Below are positions 3,129-59,320 of a DNA stretch of 64,000 nt, piece by piece. A program made the position numbers and the translations under genes. The notes under the pieces were generated by a model, which saw only the letters and a program-made list of their open reading frames with translations, was not told the DNA's origin and made no database searches. The stretch is from an uncultured Candidatus Saccharibacteria bacterium (GTDB lineage Bacteria; Patescibacteriota; Minisyncoccia; Phycocordibacterales; UBA9973), in the NCBI GenBank assembly GCA_964402895.1, contig CAYODR010000003.1, forward strand, positions 3,534 to 67,533, read 5' to 3'. Position 1 is the stretch's first letter. Each line of letters starts with the position of its first letter.

Positions 3129-4010
3129 TTAATCAACATATTCAAGTCTTCCATTGTCAGTCATATACATCTTTCTATCAAGAGATGGGACATAGGAGGA
3201 TATCCTTGGAACATATGTTTCTTCAGCATTTTTTATGTATGCTTTATAATCTTTTGTTTCAAGAACAAAGTAATTTTTAAAAGACCTAAAAATAGTTACC
3301 GTTGGGTCAAGGCGAATTTCTTGGTATAAAACCAAAGTATCACCCTTAAAGTACCTGTATTCATAAGCTCCATCGGCTTCATTTCCTTTAGTAGCTTCGT
3401 GATGTATATAGTACATTTCTATCCCCAACTTCTCTTCTTTGGTGATTTTTGTCCAAGGAGAATATCCAATTGGAGTGACAGCAAAGCATGTACTTGCTTG
3501 AATATGCACAAGTTTTCTGTCTAAAGTAAAAGCTTCTCTTCTACCAAAAACACAATTGTTTACATCATTGAAAGTGGTCTTCCATTCCATAGGCTTTGAC
3601 CTGTCTCCACCGGGGAAATCATAAATTTCATCCTTCCCTGTTTGCCTCCAAACTCCGATAAGTTTCAAAAAAAACGGATCAGGTGGTAACACTTTGATTG
3701 TCAAAGTCTTGGTACTGGTTAAACCCTCTTTTGTAGCAGAGAATACTAATACTGTATCTCTGATCATTTCTTTGAAGGAAAAATCAACAAAACTCTTTTC
3801 TTGCTCAACACCATTAACGGAAATCTTTCCATTATCAGTGCGGGCTTGAAAACTTATACTTTGTCCGTATTCTATCTCAGGTTTATCAGATGATAATCCG
3901 GAAAAAGATATGACCGGTGGTACGACTTTTGGTGGTTCCACTGGTGGGACCACTGGGTCTTTCTCACAACTTAGTGTGAAAAAGAGGAATATGAAAAGTA
4001 TCTTTTTCAT
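3129..4010 (-). CDS. putative lipoprotein
   Basis: signal peptide with lipobox-like LSC; proline-rich linker PVVPPVEPPKVVPPV. Confidence 0.5.
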   Translation of the reverse strand: MKKILFIFLFFTLSCEKDPVVPPVEPPKVVPPVISFSGLSSDKPEIEYGQSISFQARTDNGKISVNGVEQEKSFVDFSFKEMIRDTVLVFSATKEGLTSTKTLTIKVLPPDPFFLKLIGVWRQTGKDEIYDFPGGDRSKPMEWKTTFNDVNNCVFGRREAFTLDRKLVHIQASTCFAVTPIGYSPWTKITKEEKLGIEMYYIHHEATKGNEADGAYEYRYFKGDTLVLYQEIRLDPTVTIFRSFKNYFVLETKDYKAYIKNAEETYVPRISSYVPSLDRKMYMTDNGRLEYVD

Positions 4011-9680: not shown

Positions 9681-10345
9681 TTAATTCACTATTTTTATAT
9701 AGTTTCTGATTACCGAACAGCTACACCTACGATTATAAGACCCGCCGCTACTCTGAGTAGAACCATTACAACCTACATATGTATTTTTTCTATTAGAAGC
9801 AAGCTCCATTCCAGCAATAATAAAATAATATTGCCCATTTGCACATCCAGAATACGCAGATGCAGAATAGTAATAATACACTCCACCATCAGTATTGCTA
9901 CCACTATTCCATACAGATAAGGGTTCTGGAGTAGGATCAATAGGGTCTTGCGCTATATATGGAGCAAGAGCGCCACCAGAGATCCACCTGCCATTAGATA
10001 AACCCGTAACAGAATTACACCAGTTTATACTATTTACAATCGGACCACTTGGGGAGCAACTCGCAGATGATGGATACTGCCCATGATCCATATAGTACAT
10101 CTCAAGCGCTGTTTGAATATTTCTAATATCAGAAATTCTTTTAGCATCTCTTGCTTTACTTCTTGCACTATTTAAAGATGCGATAACTACGCCCGCAAGT
10201 ATTCCTATAATGGCGATGACTACTAAAAGCTCAATGAGGGTGAAAGCTTTATTTTTATTATTAAAATAATTTAGAGTGAAGGCGTAACTTTTAGTGGTAT
10301 ACCCCCCCCCCTAATATTCTTTAGTTGGGGTGATAAGATTTTCAT
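9681..10345 (-). pseudogene. type IV pilin-like gene interrupted by a frameshift at a G10 tract (phase-OFF or homopolymer error)
   Basis: ATG at 10345 encodes the leader MKILSPQLKNIRGGG. It then hits a stop because the G-run (plus-strand C10 at 10302-10311) puts it +1 out of frame with the downstream YTTKSYAFTLNYFNNKNKAFTLIELLVVIAIIGILAGVVIASLNSAR... prepilin helix. An 11-G tract would restore a full pilin collinear with the paralogs at 10424 and 58401. Confidence 0.55.
10302..10311. repeat. homopolymeric C10/G10 tract inside the pilin leader coding region
   Basis: counted directly; the paralogous genes have G6 at the same IGG-encoding position. Confidence 0.9.
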
Positions 10346-10390
10346 GAGAATATTATAACATAGTGTGTGTCCCAAACAATATATCTTGCT
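10346..10390 (-). promoter_or_regulatory. conserved pilin upstream block (TGTTTGGGAC ... TGTTATAAT -N6- ATG)
   Basis: the same architecture as upstream of the other two pilin genes; the extended -10 ends 6 nt before the ATG. Confidence 0.45.
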
Positions 10391-10423
10391 AATAAATTCA
10401 TAGTTTTTCTTAAAAAATAAAAT

Positions 10424-11194
10424 CTAAGATGCACAGCGAACAGGATAATTAGTAGTTAAAAACCCTGTGAGTACATAGCTATCATTAAAACCCTGCACAT
10501 AAGCAACATTGTTTGAACTGATAATAGCAATAGATGGAGTAGATGACCAATAATAATTATTATTAAAACCTACATTACCATTATAATCATATATAGATTT
10601 TAAAACCTCAACAGGTGGGAGTCTTTTGCCCGCTGTTGCGCAAATATTATTTGCACCAATCCAGCCCGATGTCCCACTGTTTGAAGAATCAAGCGTTATT
10701 ACACTCTGAGCATCTACTGCATAATGTCTTTCATTGAAATATACTGCTACACCAAAATTTTTAGTTTCTAAAGAATCTGCTGGGATAAAATTATTAACAG
10801 TATCTCTGGGCACATCACTTGTCCTGACTACACACCTAACCTTATCTGCTCCTGCAATACTTATAAGAGCATCTATCATAGGTTGTATTGAAGCATGAGC
10901 TGTGACGCCTGTTGGATTATATGTACAAAGACCTGCAAATGTACCATTGTCTAAATGATATAGTTGGGCTTGATTTTGAAGATTCTTTAGATTTGATTTA
11001 ATCGCTGCTACTCTGCCACTTGTTCTGGCTGAGTTTAAAGATGCGATGACGACTCCTGCTAGTATTCCAATAATTGCAATTACAACAAGAAGCTCTATTA
11101 AAGTAAAAGCTTTAGATTTTTTTAGAGCAAAGATGCTCTTTTTAGAATAGCACCCCCCTATTTGTCTTTTAGAGTTTATTGGTAAATTTTTCAT
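10424..11194 (-). CDS. type IV pilin-like protein (prepilin N-terminal motif)
   Basis: leader MKNLPINSKRQIGGCYSKK...KAFTLIELLVVIAIIGILAGVVIASLNSAR; Cys-containing C-terminal domain. Confidence 0.8.
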   Translation of the reverse strand: MKNLPINSKRQIGGCYSKKSIFALKKSKAFTLIELLVVIAIIGILAGVVIASLNSARTSGRVAAIKSNLKNLQNQAQLYHLDNGTFAGLCTYNPTGVTAHASIQPMIDALISIAGADKVRCVVRTSDVPRDTVNNFIPADSLETKNFGVAVYFNERHYAVDAQSVITLDSSNSGTSGWIGANNICATAGKRLPPVEVLKSIYDYNGNVGFNNNYYWSSTPSIAIISSNNVAYVQGFNDSYVLTGFLTTNYPVRCAS

Positions 11195-11240
11195 GGTTTT
11201 ATTATATCATAGCATTAGTCCCAAACACTACATCCTATTC
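11195..11240 (-). promoter_or_regulatory. conserved pilin upstream block with TGATATAAT -10 box 6 nt before the ATG
   Basis: reverse complement reads aggatgtagtgtttgggactaatgctatgatataataaaacc ATG, nearly identical to the block upstream of 58401. Confidence 0.45.
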
Positions 11241-11329
11241 AGAGACACGGATAAAAATCTGCTGATTTTTTCCTGTGCTCAGACCAGTCGTCTTCCGCAA
11301 GTCTCTTCATAGGATATATTGTTTGGGAC
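11219..11329. repeat. GC-rich palindromic element, copy A (21-bp terminal inverted repeats gtcccaaacaNtacatcctat)
   Basis: perfect TIR pair flanking a core containing ataaaaatctgctgatttttt; the core is the reverse complement of part of the copy at 58266-58377. Confidence 0.6.
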
Positions 11330-11346
11330 TTTTATATTCACTAACG

Positions 11347-11445
11347 CAAAACAAAGCCTTTTTGCCGTGTCTCGCAGGCTGACTGAGCCGAGAGTCAGGC
11401 AATTTTTCAGCAGAAAAATATGCCGACGGCAAAAAGGCTTTGTTT
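11347..11445. repeat. GC-rich palindromic element, copy B (20-bp perfect TIR caaacaaagcctttttgccg)
   Basis: the core shares cgcaggctgactgagccgag with the 58266 copy and has a central atttttcagcagaaaaat palindrome. Confidence 0.6.
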
Positions 11446-11551
11446 GAAGTGGTGAAGATTTAAAAATAAATAAAATAGTTTTAGAAATTTTTTAAATATT
11501 TTAAGAAATAATCTATAAAAATAACAAATTATATTTATATAAAGTCAATGG

Positions 11552-11661: not shown

Positions 11662-11934
11662 ATGAATAAACAAGCACTTGTTGAACTTATCCACGGCAAA
11701 ATCGGAGGTACAAAAGTACAATCTGAAGAAGTAATGGAAAGTCTTATCGACGCAATCGTAAGCACACTTAAAAAAGGAGAAGAAGTTTCTATCGCAGGAC
11801 TTGGTATCTTTTCAGTTAAAGATCGTGCAGCTCGTACTGCTCGCAACCCAAAAACAGGCGAAACAGTAAAAGTAGCAGCGACACGCGTTCCAAAATTCCG
11901 TGCAGCAAAAGCACTAAAAGATGCTGTAAAATAA
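11662..11934 (+). CDS. hup: DNA-binding protein HU
   Basis: 90 aa; GLGIFSVKDRAARTARNPKTGETVKV arm motif of the HU/IHF family. Confidence 0.9.
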   Translation: MNKQALVELIHGKIGGTKVQSEEVMESLIDAIVSTLKKGEEVSIAGLGIFSVKDRAARTARNPKTGETVKVAATRVPKFRAAKALKDAVK

Positions 11935-11990
11935 AACCCAAAACAAAAACACGCAAGTTTTATCTTGCGTGTTTTTGTTTTGGGTTTTAT
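11934..11990 (+). terminator. long-stem rho-independent terminator after hup
   Basis: 23-bp stem aaacccaaaacaaaaacacgcaag/ttgcgtgtttttgttttgggttt. Confidence 0.75.
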
Positions 11991-12048
11991 TGACTTTATA
12001 TATATTTTGTATATATTAGTAAACAGTATGTACCTAAATAATTAAATT

Positions 12049-17908: not shown

Positions 17909-18229
17909 GTGAATATGAAAGATACGACATATTATCAAATAATGAACTATCTAAATCTTCAAAAAAGACCTGTTTCACCGCATGAACTAAGAATGATAAC
18001 TAAGAAAAGTCGAGTCTCAGTACAATCCGCACTTAAAAAGCTCCAGAAAAATGGGTGGCTGATTAAAATCGGTACATCTCCAAAAGTCTTCTATAAAATG
18101 ATTGATCCAAATAAAATAATTTCATCCACACAAGAAGTTACACATGAAACAACCATAGAAAAAGTTGAAAACAGGGGATTACTTGAAAAATTCATATATG
18201 ACTCAAATAGTGTTCTTGGTATTGACTAA
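17909..18229 (+). CDS. small winged-helix DNA-binding protein
   Basis: HELRMITKKSRVSVQSALKKLQKNGWL wHTH pattern. Confidence 0.4.
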   Translation: MNMKDTTYYQIMNYLNLQKRPVSPHELRMITKKSRVSVQSALKKLQKNGWLIKIGTSPKVFYKMIDPNKIISSTQEVTHETTIEKVENRGLLEKFIYDSNSVLGID

Positions 18230-18279
18230 AATAAAAAATGTATTAAGATAATATTCTAGTACATTTTAAACAAAAAAAT

Positions 18280-18426
18280 ATGAAAAAGGGACAGAAAAGT
18301 CAAAAGAAAAAGTATGCTTGGTTTGGCCATGGATCTACAGATCCAAAAAATAACCTAAACAAAAATCAGCAGAAAAACATCAAGGTAGCAAATAAACCCA
18401 TTATCACCCGAAGAAACGGTGGGTAA
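18280..18426 (+). CDS. small basic peptide (48 aa), not in the ORF track
   Basis: ATG..TAA ORF MKKGQKSQKKKYAWFGHGSTDPKNN... followed by a good terminator at 18448-18476. Confidence 0.3.
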   Translation: MKKGQKSQKKKYAWFGHGSTDPKNNLNKNQQKNIKVANKPIITRRNGG

Positions 18427-18447
18427 TAATAGGTTTAAAAAACAGAA

Positions 18448-18476
18448 GGAGGGGTATAGCCCCTCTATTTTTATTT
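18448..18476 (+). terminator. rho-independent terminator
   Basis: gaggggtatagcccctc hairpin followed by a T-run. Confidence 0.55.
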
Positions 18477-18501
18477 TAGATAATAGTTTAAAATATAATA
18501 T

Positions 18502-19137
18502 ATGAAACATTTAATATCTTTTGACCTAGACGGTACTCTAACTACAGAGAATTCATGGTTTTTACTAAATAAAGCTATGGGTTTAACCCAAGAAGAAGAT
18601 AGTGAATTATTTAATGACTATCTATCTGGAAAGATCTCTTACGATGAATGGATGGATCTTATCATTTCTATTTATAAAAATAAGAAAGGGGACTTATCAA
18701 AAGATCAAGTAGATCAAATAGCAAATTCTATAAATATCCGAGAAGGAGCTTTTGAAGTGGTTGAAAAACTCAAATCTATGGGTCATGAAGTGATTATAAT
18801 ATCTGGCTCTGTAGATACAATCTGTAATCAAATAGCTCAAAAACTAAACATAGATACATATCTAACTGCATCACAATTAGTTTTTAATAATGAAAACCAA
18901 ATTACAGACATTGAAACAATGGGGGACGAAAGATCCGCAAAAATGAAACTCTTGAAAAACTATTGTGACCAAAAGGGCTACACGCTAGATATGGTGATAG
19001 CCATAGGAGATGGTGGAAATGATTTAGAAATATTTGAAAATGTTAAAGGTATCTTAATAGGAGAAAATACTGAACTTTCAAATGTTGCATGGAAGAAAGT
19101 GTCTAAACTATCTGAGATACCAGATCTTATGGAATAA
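18502..19137 (+). CDS. HAD-superfamily hydrolase (phosphoserine phosphatase-like, subfamily IB)
   Basis: motif I FDLDGTL, motif IV IGDGGNDLEIF. Confidence 0.75.
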   Translation: MKHLISFDLDGTLTTENSWFLLNKAMGLTQEEDSELFNDYLSGKISYDEWMDLIISIYKNKKGDLSKDQVDQIANSINIREGAFEVVEKLKSMGHEVIIISGSVDTICNQIAQKLNIDTYLTASQLVFNNENQITDIETMGDERSAKMKLLKNYCDQKGYTLDMVIAIGDGGNDLEIFENVKGILIGENTELSNVAWKKVSKLSEIPDLME

Positions 19138-19181
19138 ATTCAAAAAAAATAAACCGCCTATTTTCATAGTCGGTTCAATGT

Positions 19182-19213
19182 GGACGATTTTAATATTAGG
19201 CTCGTCCGTTTTC
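19182..19213 (+). terminator. terminator after the HAD gene
   Basis: ggacga...tcgtcc hairpin followed by a T-run. Confidence 0.5.
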
Positions 19214-19225
19214 CTTTTTCCTTTT

Positions 19226-19462
19226 TTAAAGGAACATTAACCATCCTCCAAATATGGTAATTAATCCTGACCATATAGCAATTGCTCCTGATTTTAAACT
19301 ACTTGCTCTGTTATCTGATAAAGAGAAAAGCAGTATTAGTAGTGCTCCAGATATCAATGCTAATCCACACCAGTGAATATCTTTTGTCTGGAACATCATT
19401 ACAAGTGCAATAGAGAACAACAGTGTTGTAATGGCTTGGGGAATAAAAAAGAAATTTTTCAT
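19226..19462 (-). CDS. small two-TM membrane protein (78 aa)
   Basis: two hydrophobic helices; its start codon lies 5 nt downstream of a 19-bp hairpin and about 120 nt downstream of the hammerhead motif on the same strand. Confidence 0.45.
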   Translation of the reverse strand: MKNFFFIPQAITTLLFSIALVMMFQTKDIHWCGLALISGALLILLFSLSDNRASSLKSGAIAIWSGLITIFGGWLMFL

Positions 19463-19468
19463 ATTTTT

Positions 19469-19521
19469 AATTTAATTGGTTACTTGAATATCCATAAGAA
19501 ACTCAAGTAACCAATTAAATT
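19469..19521 (-). other. perfect 19-bp stem-loop (15-nt loop) immediately 5' of the start codon at 19462
   Basis: ttaattggttacttga ... tcaagtaaccaattaa perfect inverted repeat, extendable by 3 bp. Confidence 0.7.
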
Positions 19522-19537
19522 TATTTAAAAGAACAAT

Positions 19538-19586
19538 CTGTTTCGTCCTTTTGGACTCATCAGTACGAATACACATTCGTATACAG
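19538..19586 (-). ncRNA. hammerhead ribozyme motif (type III topology)
   Basis: minus strand reads CUGU-A / UACGAAU-GUGU-AUUCGUA / CUGAUGA / GUCC-AAAA-GGAC / GAA / ACAG. The core C3-A9, G10.1-C11.1, G12A13A14 and A15.1-U16.1 are all canonical, with a GUA cleavage triplet, a 7-bp stem I, 4-bp stem II and 4-bp stem III. Confidence 0.7.
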
Positions 19587-19821
19587 TGTGGACCTATTAC
19601 TAGATCCACTGACATCCCACATTTTTGTTAACCACCAATGCGAGGACAGTTATGTTTTTACACAACGGAATGCCATATATAGCGAAACACTTATTTTGAG
19701 ACATTGTTTCAGAGATGTCTTTCACTTTTTCAGTGTATGTATGCTTCACAGCAGACATCACTTACTTTCTGTTGCCAACCGGCTGTTCGTGCTATTGAAC
19801 AGTGTGAGACCGGTCCGAACG

Positions 19822-20865
19822 TCATTTGTCATAATGCCATGCTGCATCAAACACTGGAATCAGAAATTGTTTGTTAGACAATCCTTTTTTCCGTGCCATG
19901 GTCACCGCTACTGCAAATCCTGCCTTTCCTGTTCTCCCAAACTCACTCAACGCTTCGTGGTGAAAGTCATCCCATTTAGCAACCCATTCACTTTTATCTG
20001 TCGGTTTGAAGCCGACAGCTTTCATGAAAGTTTGATCAATGTGATTACTTGTTACCAAAGCCACTGTATCAAGATGAGGTATTGAAGCCTCAAGAGCGGG
20101 GAACGGAAACATTGGATTTGCATATGTAGTGCCAGGTAAATCATGTCTTGCAATAACAGAAGGGTCTTCTATACCAAATACTCTTTGATACTTGCCGGGG
20201 AATCTCTTCCGATAGGCAAGAGCAGATGATACTGCTTCAAATCCCACAATTGTTATTCCAGGAAGCAATGATTTAAACTCTGTTCCCATGGAGAGCGTTG
20301 TTGTGCCGTTGCCTACGGGGGCAACTAAAATATCTGGTGTGATATTAGCATCAACAATCTCTTTTGCGAAAGGGCGAAATGCATCGATTGCAACTTCGTT
20401 AATACAATCCCCGCGTCCAGTAATATCACCCATCACGTGATTTATATACTTGGTACCGCGGTGTTCGGCGAGGAATCGCTTGATGAACATTGGAAAGCCA
20501 TTAACGTATGCTTCGGCAGGGGTGAGGTGTAGCTCAGCACCGGCCTTTTCGATTGCGGTTTCGCGTGCCCTTTCACCGCCAGCAGGTACAGCTATCTTGA
20601 TTGGGTAACCAAGGGCTGTTGCAATTGCGGCGGCTGCACGTCCTCCTGAGCCGGAAGTAGTTTCAAGCAGTGTATCACCAGGTTTAATAATGCCTAAGCA
20701 TTCTTTCTGATAAATAAGCTGTGAAAATATCCTAGCATAATGACATTCTCCGTAAGGTAATTTATATTCCATCTTGAAATGGTATATGTTTCCCTCAAAC
20801 TCAATTGTTTTAATTGGTGAGTTTTTAACGGCATCCAAAATTTGGTTGTAAAGAGCTGTTCTCAT
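19822..20865 (-). CDS. PALP-fold (tryptophan-synthase-beta/cysteine-synthase-like) protein in a GC-richer island
   Basis: TSGSGGRAAAAIATALGYPIKIAVPAG and VAPVGNGTTTLSMG align by eye with CysK-type fold II PLP enzymes. The expected Schiff-base Lys position reads GECHYAR (Lys apparently absent). GC content is visibly above the surroundings. Confidence 0.6.
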   Translation of the reverse strand: MRTALYNQILDAVKNSPIKTIEFEGNIYHFKMEYKLPYGECHYARIFSQLIYQKECLGIIKPGDTLLETTSGSGGRAAAAIATALGYPIKIAVPAGGERARETAIEKAGAELHLTPAEAYVNGFPMFIKRFLAEHRGTKYINHVMGDITGRGDCINEVAIDAFRPFAKEIVDANITPDILVAPVGNGTTTLSMGTEFKSLLPGITIVGFEAVSSALAYRKRFPGKYQRVFGIEDPSVIARHDLPGTTYANPMFPFPALEASIPHLDTVALVTSNHIDQTFMKAVGFKPTDKSEWVAKWDDFHHEALSEFGRTGKAGFAVAVTMARKKGLSNKQFLIPVFDAAWHYDK

Positions 20866-58073: not shown

Positions 58074-58108
58074 TTTTTTTAAATTACATTACTTATTTTA
58101 TAGACTCA

Positions 58109-58213
58109 AAACCAAATATGTCCTTCTGGGGGCACGCGTATTTTTCTGAGGAAAAATCGCTATGCTCGCGCCAGTCGCGCTGCGCAAGTCCCCCAGAAGG
58201 ACATATTTGGTTT
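58109..58213. repeat. GC-rich palindromic element, copy C (24-bp TIR aaaccaaatatgtccttctggggg)
   Basis: perfect TIRs; central tatttttctgaggaaaaat palindrome as in the other copies. Confidence 0.55.
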
Positions 58214-58265
58214 CTTGTTTTTGTTATTCTGTTAAAATTAAAATAAACCTTTTCACTATATAAAA

Positions 58266-58377
58266 GTCCCAAACAATACATCCTATGAAGAGACTTGCGC
58301 AGGCTGACTGAGCCGAGCACAGGAAAAAATCAGCAGATTTTTATCCGTGTCTCTGAATAGGATGTACTGTTTGGGAC
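58266..58377. repeat. GC-rich palindromic element, copy D (same TIR family as 11219-11329, core inverted)
   Basis: TIR gtcccaaacaatacatcctat / ataggatgtactgtttgggac; the core is the reverse complement of the copy-A core. The right TIR doubles as the pilin upstream block. Confidence 0.6.
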
Positions 58378-58385
58378 GCACATTA

Positions 58386-58394
58386 TGATATAAT
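58386..58394 (+). promoter_or_regulatory. extended -10 TGATATAAT, 6 nt upstream of the pilin ATG
   Basis: read directly; the same block occurs upstream of the other two pilin genes. Confidence 0.45.
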
Positions 58395-58400
58395 ATTTAT

Positions 58401-59093
58401 ATGAAAAAAATACCAACAAACTCTAAAACACAAATAGGGGGGTATACACTAAAAAGTAAAGCCTTCACTCTGATTGAACTTCTTGTTGTAATTGCAATCA
58501 TCGGTATTCTTGCGGGAGTAGTAATAGCTAGCCTAAACAGCGCCAGAACCAAAGGTAGAGTAGCGGCGATTAAATCAAATTTAAAGAATCTTCAGACACA
58601 AGCGCTCGCATATCATGCAGAAAATGGAACTTTTCTAGGATTATGTAATGCTGATAATAGTGTTATCCATGCAAATATAAAACCTAATTTTGATGCACTT
58701 AAAAATATCGTTGGAGAAAATAATATTAAATGTTTTGTTAATACATCATTATTGCAATATTATACATTTGGTGTAAGTGTGTATTTTGAAGAAAATTATT
58801 ATAGCGTAGATCATTCTATGATTTTGGCATTAGATAATTATTCCAATGTAGCTACTTCAACTGGTTGGCAGAACTCAATGGATAGCTGTATTTCTCAGGG
58901 TAAATTTGTTGCCTCTATTATGATGTTGAAAACAGTATTTGATCTAGGTTTTAGTGTAAGTGCTTATCACTGGTCGTCTACGGAGTCTTTTAATGATAGC
59001 TCTATGGCTTATACTCAACATCCAACTAATGGTATTTCATATCAAAATGTTAAGACATCAGGTTTTAATAGATCTATTTGTGGTACTTTATAA
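58401..59093 (+). CDS. type IV pilin-like protein (prepilin N-terminal motif)
   Basis: leader MKKIPTNSKTQIGGYTLKSKAFTLIELLVVIAIIGILAGVVIASLNSARTKGRVAAIKSNLKNLQ; almost identical N-terminus to the 10424 paralog. Confidence 0.8.
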   Translation: MKKIPTNSKTQIGGYTLKSKAFTLIELLVVIAIIGILAGVVIASLNSARTKGRVAAIKSNLKNLQTQALAYHAENGTFLGLCNADNSVIHANIKPNFDALKNIVGENNIKCFVNTSLLQYYTFGVSVYFEENYYSVDHSMILALDNYSNVATSTGWQNSMDSCISQGKFVASIMMLKTVFDLGFSVSAYHWSSTESFNDSSMAYTQHPTNGISYQNVKTSGFNRSICGTL

Positions 59094-59118
59094 TTTTTGT
59101 TCTAAAAAACAAAAAAGC

Positions 59119-59248
59119 ATAAATCTCTAAACAGTCCTTATAAAGACTGTGCTTCATAAGTAAAGCATATTTGTAGGATAGCCCCAGTCGAAACCAAGAC
59201 GTCCTGCGCCTAGACTTAGAACCTGTGGCTGACTGCTTAGAGATTTAT
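59119..59248. repeat. palindromic element, copy E (18-bp TIR ataaatctctaaacagtc, 1 mismatch)
   Basis: TIR pair read directly; the core contains the ggctgactg motif shared with other copies. Confidence 0.5.
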
Positions 59249-59320
59249 ACCTTCTTATTGTGATATAATATATTTATATTGAATTGAGTGCTAAAAGTAT
59301 AATAGCATAAGCAAATAAAA

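Follow-up and report, generated by a model that had tools for sequence, protein, structure and literature searches.

Why should one stretch of a patescibacterial genome carry sharply GC-rich palindromes, and why should these stand beside its pilin genes? The stretch (hereafter the window, i.e., all 64,000 nucleotides from position 3,534 to 67,533 of contig CAYODR010000003.1, GenBank assembly GCA_964402895.1) belongs to an uncultured Candidatus Saccharibacteria bacterium. The Patescibacteria, or candidate phyla radiation (CPR), have tiny genomes in which spacers are very short, and not many mobile elements or regulatory RNAs are known from them. A first-pass annotation had described five window elements bounded by terminal inverted repeats (TIRs), one of these repeats doubling as a pilin promoter block, and had offered four options: mobile repeats of the kind of miniature inverted-repeat transposable elements (MITEs), substrates for pilin shuffling, binding sites of a pilin regulator, or structured small RNAs (sRNAs). 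Judging from sequence and modelled structure, four of the five (c1 to c4) are members of a low-copy family of structured palindromic repeats of Paceibacteria-type Patescibacteria, and this family as a whole is not pilin-associated. As to its nature, we give about an even chance to the reading that it is a dispersed, non-autonomous structured repeat resembling the repetitive extragenic palindromes (REPs) and their doublets (REPINs), and neither a classical MITE nor specific to pilins.

Architecture of the element

The element is about 100–150 nt long and consists of a long closing stem, P1 (which the first-pass annotation had read as the TIRs), and a three-way-junction core. P1, of 20–35 bp, closes a conserved junction centre of 55–60 nt carrying two arms: P2, in which 3–5 bp lead to a GCA/GA internal loop and from there, through a 4-bp stem, to a GACUG pentaloop, and P3, a hairpin rich in A/U that ends in an ANCA tetraloop and contains a bulged A. 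All four window copies are predicted to fold alike, and their GC content of 0.41–0.54, against a window mean of about 0.33, bears out their description as GC-rich elements in AT-rich DNA. With strands set by the GACTG motif, c1 lies on the minus strand at 11217-11330, the sense 5′ arm of its P1 at 11301-11330 and the 3′ arm at 11217-11246 forming inverted repeat I10 (30 nt, 87% complementary); its divergent partner c2, on the plus strand at 11347-11445, has the core GCAGGCTGACTGAGCCGAG and perfect 20-nt P1 arms (20 perfect pairs in the arm alignment), and 16 nt separate the 5′ ends of the two. The second pair consists of c3, on the minus strand at 58108-58214, with perfect 24-nt P1 arms (I21, 58109-58132 / 58190-58213, 24 nt, 100%) and antisense to the neighbouring SET-domain and pilin genes, and its divergent partner c4, on the plus strand at 58266-58377, whose arms match at 26 of 29 positions. 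The predicted folds reach -55.4 kcal/mol in c1 (z = -9.4), -51.6 in c2 (z = -8.2), -64 in c3 (z = -10.8) and -58 in c4 (z = -10.4); z thus spans -8 to -11 and 0 of 200 shuffles is equally stable, in agreement with the suggestion that these stretches form hairpins of about 100 nt. A covariance model scores the same copies at 74.8, 85.6, 86.5 and 85.2 bits respectively (75–87 bits, E 1e-19 to 1e-22), the next match in the 64 kb having 14 bits.

Covariation is visible already among the window copies, where the P2 stem reads GGCU/AGCC, GCGC/GCGC (the P2b stem of c3) or AGAC/GUCU (that of c1, with its GACUG loop, at 11281-11293), the A-run and U-run of P3 swap sides, and the P1 arms of c2, c3 and c4 are mutually unrelated in sequence. 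The core segment that the first-pass annotation saw shared between elements is present in four loci, as a hairpin with a covarying stem. In an alignment of 43 copies from several genomes, fitted to the covariance model, 94.3% of the cells are paired, compared to 66% in shuffles and 32–52% with slid partners, and compensatory changes occur at 28 of 28 pairs; an independent MAFFT alignment gives 87.6% paired against 68%. Between species the core is near-invariant, whilst P1 varies from copy to copy and yet remains paired. The sense strand of the element keeps about 20 conserved unpaired nucleotides, and in many copies P1 is interrupted, 7 bp from the junction, by a tandem G.A internal loop (43 G:A/A:G cells). 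The flanks of many copies are purine-rich (...CGA(R)A / P1 ... P1 / GAG(R)A...) and are often followed by a few extra pairs, bringing the length up to about 150 nt. Variants include an extra hairpin in locus L059 and a 45-nt insertion within P2 of L047. A likeness to the hammerhead, the K-turn and box C/D motifs, noticed by eye in CUGA and the tandem GA, was rejected: a hammerhead core would need longer junction strands, and beside the G.A pairs a 3-nt bulge is missing.

Inverted repeats were found at all five loci that the first-pass annotation had listed, but the common core is present in four only, both by the GACTG motif scan and by the covariance model. The fifth locus, at 59119-59248 between pilin 2 and ruvB, is another long hairpin (inverted repeat I22, 59108-59136 / 59231-59259, 29 nt, 83%; fold z = -6.8 / -4.4), which was considered as a divergent family member and rejected for want of a model match. 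It holds GGCTGACTG and GCGCAGG strings that resemble the family core, yet misfits the model, and it is about 97% identical in the relative L156 (positions ~1310-1440), a higher conservation than the pilin coding sequence shows. A separate non-coding RNA is one possibility, a degenerate relative of the family another.

Distribution across genomes

A scan of 185,579 species genomes with the exact 19-nt core GCAGGCTGACTGAGCCGAG as seed returned 39 loci, 30 of which, in 19 assemblies, have the whole architecture. All 19 assemblies are labelled Patescibacteria (Paceibacterota, Zambryskibacteria, Nomurabacteria, Minisyncoccia, Parcubacteria and metagenome-assembled genomes labelled 'Saccharibacteria'); the remaining nine matches are chance hits in unrelated phyla. 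A covariance model (R1) built from 31 copies also detects copies that lack the exact 19-mer, and brings the total to 43.

The family is absent from Rfam 15 and from the literature that was searched. At the gathering threshold the 4227 Rfam models find only tRNAs in the window and 18 further loci, and at E <= 10 they add noise of at most 25 bits on three different copies; hammerhead, twister, twister-sister, pistol, hatchet, hairpin, HDV-like, Y RNA and 6S are among the models without a match. Searching full texts for the core, or for repeats and RNA motifs of the CPR, turned up nothing relevant. Viral contigs gave no match to the exact 19-mer and 34 to a degenerate core pattern, all of them chance, without stem complementarity or P3, so there is no sign of a phage origin.

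Sense strand and neighbouring genes

The two strands of the element are not equivalent. In 39 of 40 copies it is the sense strand that has the more stable fold, the mean difference being 8.4 kcal/mol (Wilcoxon p = 6e-8); P1 arm mismatches are G:T or T:G in 23 cases and A:C or C:A in 7, and the tandem G.A would be C.U on the opposite strand. DNA energy parameters, however, give the identical fold, and in these models the strand-specific features fit a sense RNA and a hairpin of the sense DNA strand equally well.

Every copy is intergenic and fills nearly the whole spacer. By Pfam, the neighbours are housekeeping genes: rpsB-tsf (S2 and EF-Ts, in four genomes), recA-efp (RecA and EF-P), ftsZ-trxB, metG-tatD (MetRS and TatD), and further those of L27/L9, L19, L21, L10 and the hibernation factor HPF. 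In co-directional spacers 12–13 copies are sense and 12 antisense to the genes, while seven copies lie in convergent and seven in divergent spacers. Two copies often stand next to each other; of such pairs, four are divergent (c1/c2, c3/c4, L041 and L074), two are tandem and none is convergent, the 5′ ends of divergent pairs being merely 16–52 nt apart. Upstream of 40 copies there is no positional enrichment of TATAAT-like hexamers, a result that concerns the sigma-70 consensus only and upstream regions that are often the preceding coding region.

Could the element, then, be a functional structured RNA of its host, active only as the sense transcript, such as a cis-acting module for processing, stability or attenuation, an sRNA that binds protein and has a terminal stem like that of Y RNA, or a self-cleaving ribozyme of a new kind? 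Much of the above would be expected of it: a core invariant in 19 species while adjacent non-coding DNA diverges by about 40%, compensatory changes at each pair, G.U pairs on the sense strand together with tandem sheared G.A and the conserved unpaired nucleotides, the sense position between rpsB and tsf conserved in four species genomes, and many neighbours that are highly expressed genes. Nevertheless, of the copies in co-directional spacers half run antisense to the genes on either side and still have an intact core, no conserved promoter of the sigma-70 type was found upstream of the copies, the 16–52 nt between divergent 5′ ends are too short for two promoters, orthologous spacers are often empty (see below), and Rfam holds no ribozyme or RNA family that matches even at E <= 10. 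The random orientation, the missing promoter signal and the close divergent pairs speak against reading the element as an RNA that must act in cis or as an sRNA gene in its own right. We regard a functional RNA as the chief rival explanation, possible though rather doubtful. The sRNA option of the first-pass annotation is in keeping with the strong covariation and strand asymmetry, but finds no conserved promoter upstream and half the copies antisense to their neighbours.

The position of copies directly after stop codons and in convergent spacers recalls an elaborate bidirectional intrinsic terminator, or an insulator, beside highly expressed genes. Ordinary terminators of the window are likewise long perfect hairpins with A/T-rich outer ends, to which P1 is similar; the one that follows the HU gene (11930-11991), a hairpin whose 28 bp pair perfectly, is typical of the bidirectional terminators of this genome, and many similar simple hairpins of the window yield weak matches to the P1 part of the model only. 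At the element ends in the window, however, a consensus scan finds no hairpin followed by a terminator-type U tract; the 3′ flank is purine-rich (GAG...) and not U-rich, and copies are also met inside operons, between rpsB and tsf or recA and efp, and in regions where divergent promoters lie. A terminator would also leave the invariant core unexplained, and we consider it improbable.

Filled and empty spacers

The spacers of orthologous genes are filled in some genomes and empty in others, as the first-pass annotation anticipated for mobile elements. Taking all rpsB-tsf loci together, a sense copy is present in five, an antisense copy in two and none in six, the empty spacers measuring 28–95 nt. 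Metagenomic relatives, picked by their S2 protein and not by the element, contribute a sense copy in L080, antisense copies in L076 and L077, and empty spacers in L082 and L084-L087 (28–34 nt) and L081 (95 nt); three further rpsB contigs (L078, L079, L083) break off precisely at the stop codon of rpsB. Between recA and efp there is one copy in L039, two in L046 and none in L054, where the spacer is 6 nt long, and in L069 there is no copy and another gene sits between the two. The metG-tatD copy has opposite orientations in two genomes whose flanking genes are about 87% identical; its arms have diverged by about 40% and are yet paired, with the core unchanged. The SET-pilin spacer is another case. 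In L156, which comes from a close relative of the window organism, has a pilin 80% identical and keeps the gene order SET-pilin-ruvB, one different, antisense copy replaces c3 and c4, and homology to the window resumes only at the ATGATATAAT box.

This turnover, together with the short, non-coding, inverted-repeat-bounded form and the dispersal in both orientations, is what one would expect from a classical MITE, i.e., a non-autonomous cut-and-paste element with TIRs bound by a transposase and with target-site duplications, and one subfamily does occur in three genomes, with its P1 arms, in contexts that have no flanking gene in common. The pattern of conservation, however, is the inverse of a MITE's. 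The arms are wholly different among copies with identical cores (in L050, L061 and L069, the first and last of which show it inside one genome, as well as among c2, c3 and c4), and the core covaries like a folded molecule. No direct repeats flank 39–41 copies, the boundaries of which were set by X-drop extension and may be off by a few nucleotides, and no transposase gene recurs nearby. MITE-like mobility was thus the nearest of the four options, right as to dispersal, orientation and presence or absence; since the terminal repeats vary, the centre is conserved and no target-site duplication is seen, the family is not one of classical MITEs, which we hold to be very improbable.

Two other routes to the observed structure were considered and rejected. 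Insertion of the core into the loop of a pre-existing terminator is contradicted by the empty rpsB-tsf spacers, which measure just 28–34 nt and contain no hairpin. Copying of the arms from the target at insertion, an idea prompted by the solo copy of an arm described below, is at odds with P1-proximal sequences and whole arms that are common within subfamilies, and with a divergence of the metG-tatD arms that is about equal to that of neutral flanks.

The pilin genes

Why, then, do all four window copies flank pilin genes? Two of them lie within an inverted duplication. A block of 186 nt (I1), carrying the element, a TGnTATAAT box and the pilin 5′ end, is present at 11152-11337 and again, inverted and 88% identical, at 58258-58443, 47 kb away, which makes c4 a paralogue of c1. 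The first-pass annotation had taken the reverse complementarity of these two as proof that the element occurs in both orientations; they look reverse-complementary because the block was duplicated in inverted orientation, and relative to their own pilin genes they are oriented alike. Both orientations are truly shown by c2 and c3.

The 3′ arms of c1 and c4 each end 24 nt upstream of the ATG of their pilin gene (pilin 1 and pilin 2). The block GTCCCAAACAATATATC, which had been described as lying about 25 bp before every pilin start, occurs five times in the window at up to three mismatches, against 0.31 expected. Four of these are accounted for by the arms of c1 and c4, and the fifth is the solo copy already reported, now placed at 10369-10385 rather than 10367-10383: 17 nt of the distal P1 arm of c1/c4, on the plus strand and with no core, upstream of a frameshifted third pilin. 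The block hence stands at the given distance in two genes, and in the third only as a partial copy. The extended -10 box of pilin 2, TGATATAAT at 58386-58394 on the plus strand, lies outside the element and is the sole upstream sequence still common with the L156 ortholog, which has kept this box and lacks the block. In L157 the pilin gene has the same TGnTATAAT-N6-ATG arrangement without any element. The supposed promoter block of the pilins is thus a 3′ arm belonging to a duplicated copy and not a component of the promoter; it resembles one because that copy was duplicated along with the pilin 5′ region.

A device specific to the pilins, whether a regulator site, a part of the promoter or a recombination substrate for pilin variation, could claim several of these facts, namely the flanking positions, the 3′ arm of c1 and c4 that abuts the -10 box, the partial copy before the third pilin, the 186-nt inverted repeat of element and pilin 5′ end, which could recombine across its 47 kb, and a pilin coding sequence that is mosaic between relatives. 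Against this, 39 of the 43 copies adjoin unrelated, non-pilin housekeeping genes, five pilin loci of relatives (L157-L161) have no copy, L157 and L156 keep the promoter arrangement without the block, and the arms of c2 and c3 share no sequence with it. The regulator site, promoter block and shuffling substrate of the first-pass annotation are therefore abandoned, and a pilin-specific role of any kind seems to us hardly credible.

The pilin genes have features of their own. In all those examined (window 58386-58403, 11192-11209 and 10343-10360; L156; L157:2055-2071) the extended -10 TGnTATAAT ends 6 nt before the ATG and there is no Shine-Dalgarno sequence, suggesting leaderless pilin mRNAs. 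Each window pilin has a homopolymeric G tract in its leader-peptide codons (10302-10311, 11153-11158 and 58437-58442, read as C on the plus strand for the two minus-strand genes), of six G in two genes and of ten in the third, which is hence frameshifted and a candidate for slipped-strand phase variation; in L157 the tract is interrupted (ATAGGATGG). The L157 gene itself, in a close relative (L157:1457-3278, Logan SRR21722026), is located between rplE (L5) and rpsN (S14) of the ribosomal spc operon, equipped with a promoter of its own and preceded by a terminator hairpin. Between window 58401-59093 and L156:594-1289 blocks of about 98% identity stand beside blocks of about 70%, a mosaic that suggests recombination within the pilin gene.

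Elsewhere in the window, the cumulative GC skew has its minimum at about 18000-20000 and rises steadily afterwards, so this is a possible region of the replication origin.

Discussion

If the reading of a REP/REPIN-like dispersed repeat is correct, the element would act as a folded single strand, either as a DNA hairpin or cruciform or, on read-through, as RNA, and its core would be the recognition module for a structure-specific factor acting in trans. Persistence and spread would then follow the manner of REPs and REPINs and not pass through terminal repeats bound by a transposase. The arms may drift at about the neutral rate, their complementarity being kept by selection for pairing or by template-switch ('quasipalindrome') correction, an established mutational mechanism that may operate on these arms. 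That the element lies at pilin genes would be incidental, one copy having been duplicated with a pilin 5′ region, and a very stable hairpin in any read-through transcript would be a local by-product.

Several observations weigh against this reading. Copy number is low, at roughly one per 16–85 kb of the stretches seen, most copies are intact and the core is identical in 19 species; such invariance in few, intact copies speaks for purifying selection at the level of the host, as on a functional RNA, over selfish bursts. The rpsB-tsf copies from the genome scan are sense in four of four cases. Among the 30 fetched loci, in stretches of up to 8 kb, neither a transposase-like nor any other non-housekeeping protein recurs, and no enzyme acting in trans was found. 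No exact pair of empty and filled sites was found that is close enough to define the ends or to exclude a target duplication, and a sample seeded by one exact 19-mer is biased to one core variant.

A further reading takes its cue from the small motifs of the element, namely the two loops of P2 (GCA/GA and the GACUG pentaloop), the ANCA tetraloop and bulged A of P3, and the tandem G.A of P1. On their account the invariant core might represent a class of functional nucleic acid specific to the CPR, either a catalytic (e.g., self-cleaving) RNA carried in a dispersed repeat, or a folded-strand scaffold of an undescribed structure-specific protein of mobilisation or of the nucleoid. We think this unlikely.

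A core that is identical in at least 19 species, with freely drifting arms, is among the most conserved non-coding features seen in CPR, and the inverse pattern of conservation, variable arms around an invariant junction core, is unusual. The family may help to track down whatever protein reads the core, and may serve as a case study for the upkeep of long perfect palindromes. There is also a practical side: two short-read contigs of the same organism as the window (L001 and L002, at their position 1; Logan SRR16797981) end inside or beside c2 and c4, so that the repeats offer an explanation for assembly breaks. Finally, the result removes a tempting but wrong inference, that of palindromes as part of a system of pilin variation or regulation.

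Comparison with known systems

Classical MITEs have in common with the family the size range, the absence of coding capacity, the inverted-repeat bounds and the polymorphism of presence and absence; in the family, by contrast, arms vary between copies, target-site duplications are not seen and a cognate insertion sequence is lacking. Closer in outline are the Correia elements (NEMIS) of Neisseria and the ERIC or IRU sequences of enterobacteria, palindromic intergenic repeats of 100–150 bp that are co-transcribed with their neighbours, as copies of the family would be, form long hairpins that can be substrates of RNase III/E, and can sit against promoters. Correia elements, too, are found near pilin loci in Neisseria. 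Copies of these repeats, however, are alike over their whole length and have no covarying three-way-junction core, and Correia elements have conserved 26-bp TIRs and a TA duplication.

The attC sites of integrons are imperfect palindromes of about 60–140 bp that work as a folded single strand with strand-specific extrahelical features, much as the family would. They have conserved ends (R''/L'' ... L'/R' boxes) around a variable centre and form co-oriented arrays after cassettes, whereas in the family the ends vary, the centre is invariant, and copies are single or in divergent pairs. With multicopy structured RNAs, such as the bacterial Y RNA (YrlA) and the small self-cleaving ribozymes found in repeats, the family shares a long closing stem in which internal loops are conserved, a compact module of several helices that is likewise conserved, and the presence of several copies per genome; it differs by the missing Rfam match, the absence of an adjacent Rsr-type or signature gene and an orientation that is random to transcription. 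An intrinsic terminator, in turn, is a G+C-rich hairpin with an immediate U tract, where the family has GAG(R)A as its 3′ flank.

There remain the REP, BIME and REPIN sequences of Proteobacteria, with their Y1/HUH transposase RAYT, no gene for which was found in the stretches of up to 8 kb around copies at the 30 fetched loci. REPs are shorter (20–40 nt, or about 100 nt as REPIN doublets), have a conserved 5′ GTAG head and a conserved stem, and reach tens to hundreds of copies, whereas the family has a variable stem, a conserved 55–60-nt three-way-junction centre, no GTAG motif and an apparently low copy number. Since the family could be placed neither among MITEs, REPs, attC sites or terminators nor in Rfam, the statement that it works like a REP is an analogy and not a classification. 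As an analogy it covers a good deal: both are non-coding and intergenic, stand in either orientation and often as adjacent inverted pairs, form a strand-specific imperfect hairpin, and persist for long with patchy presence. REPs are recognised as a folded single strand and not by duplex termini, and the same may hold for the family described here.

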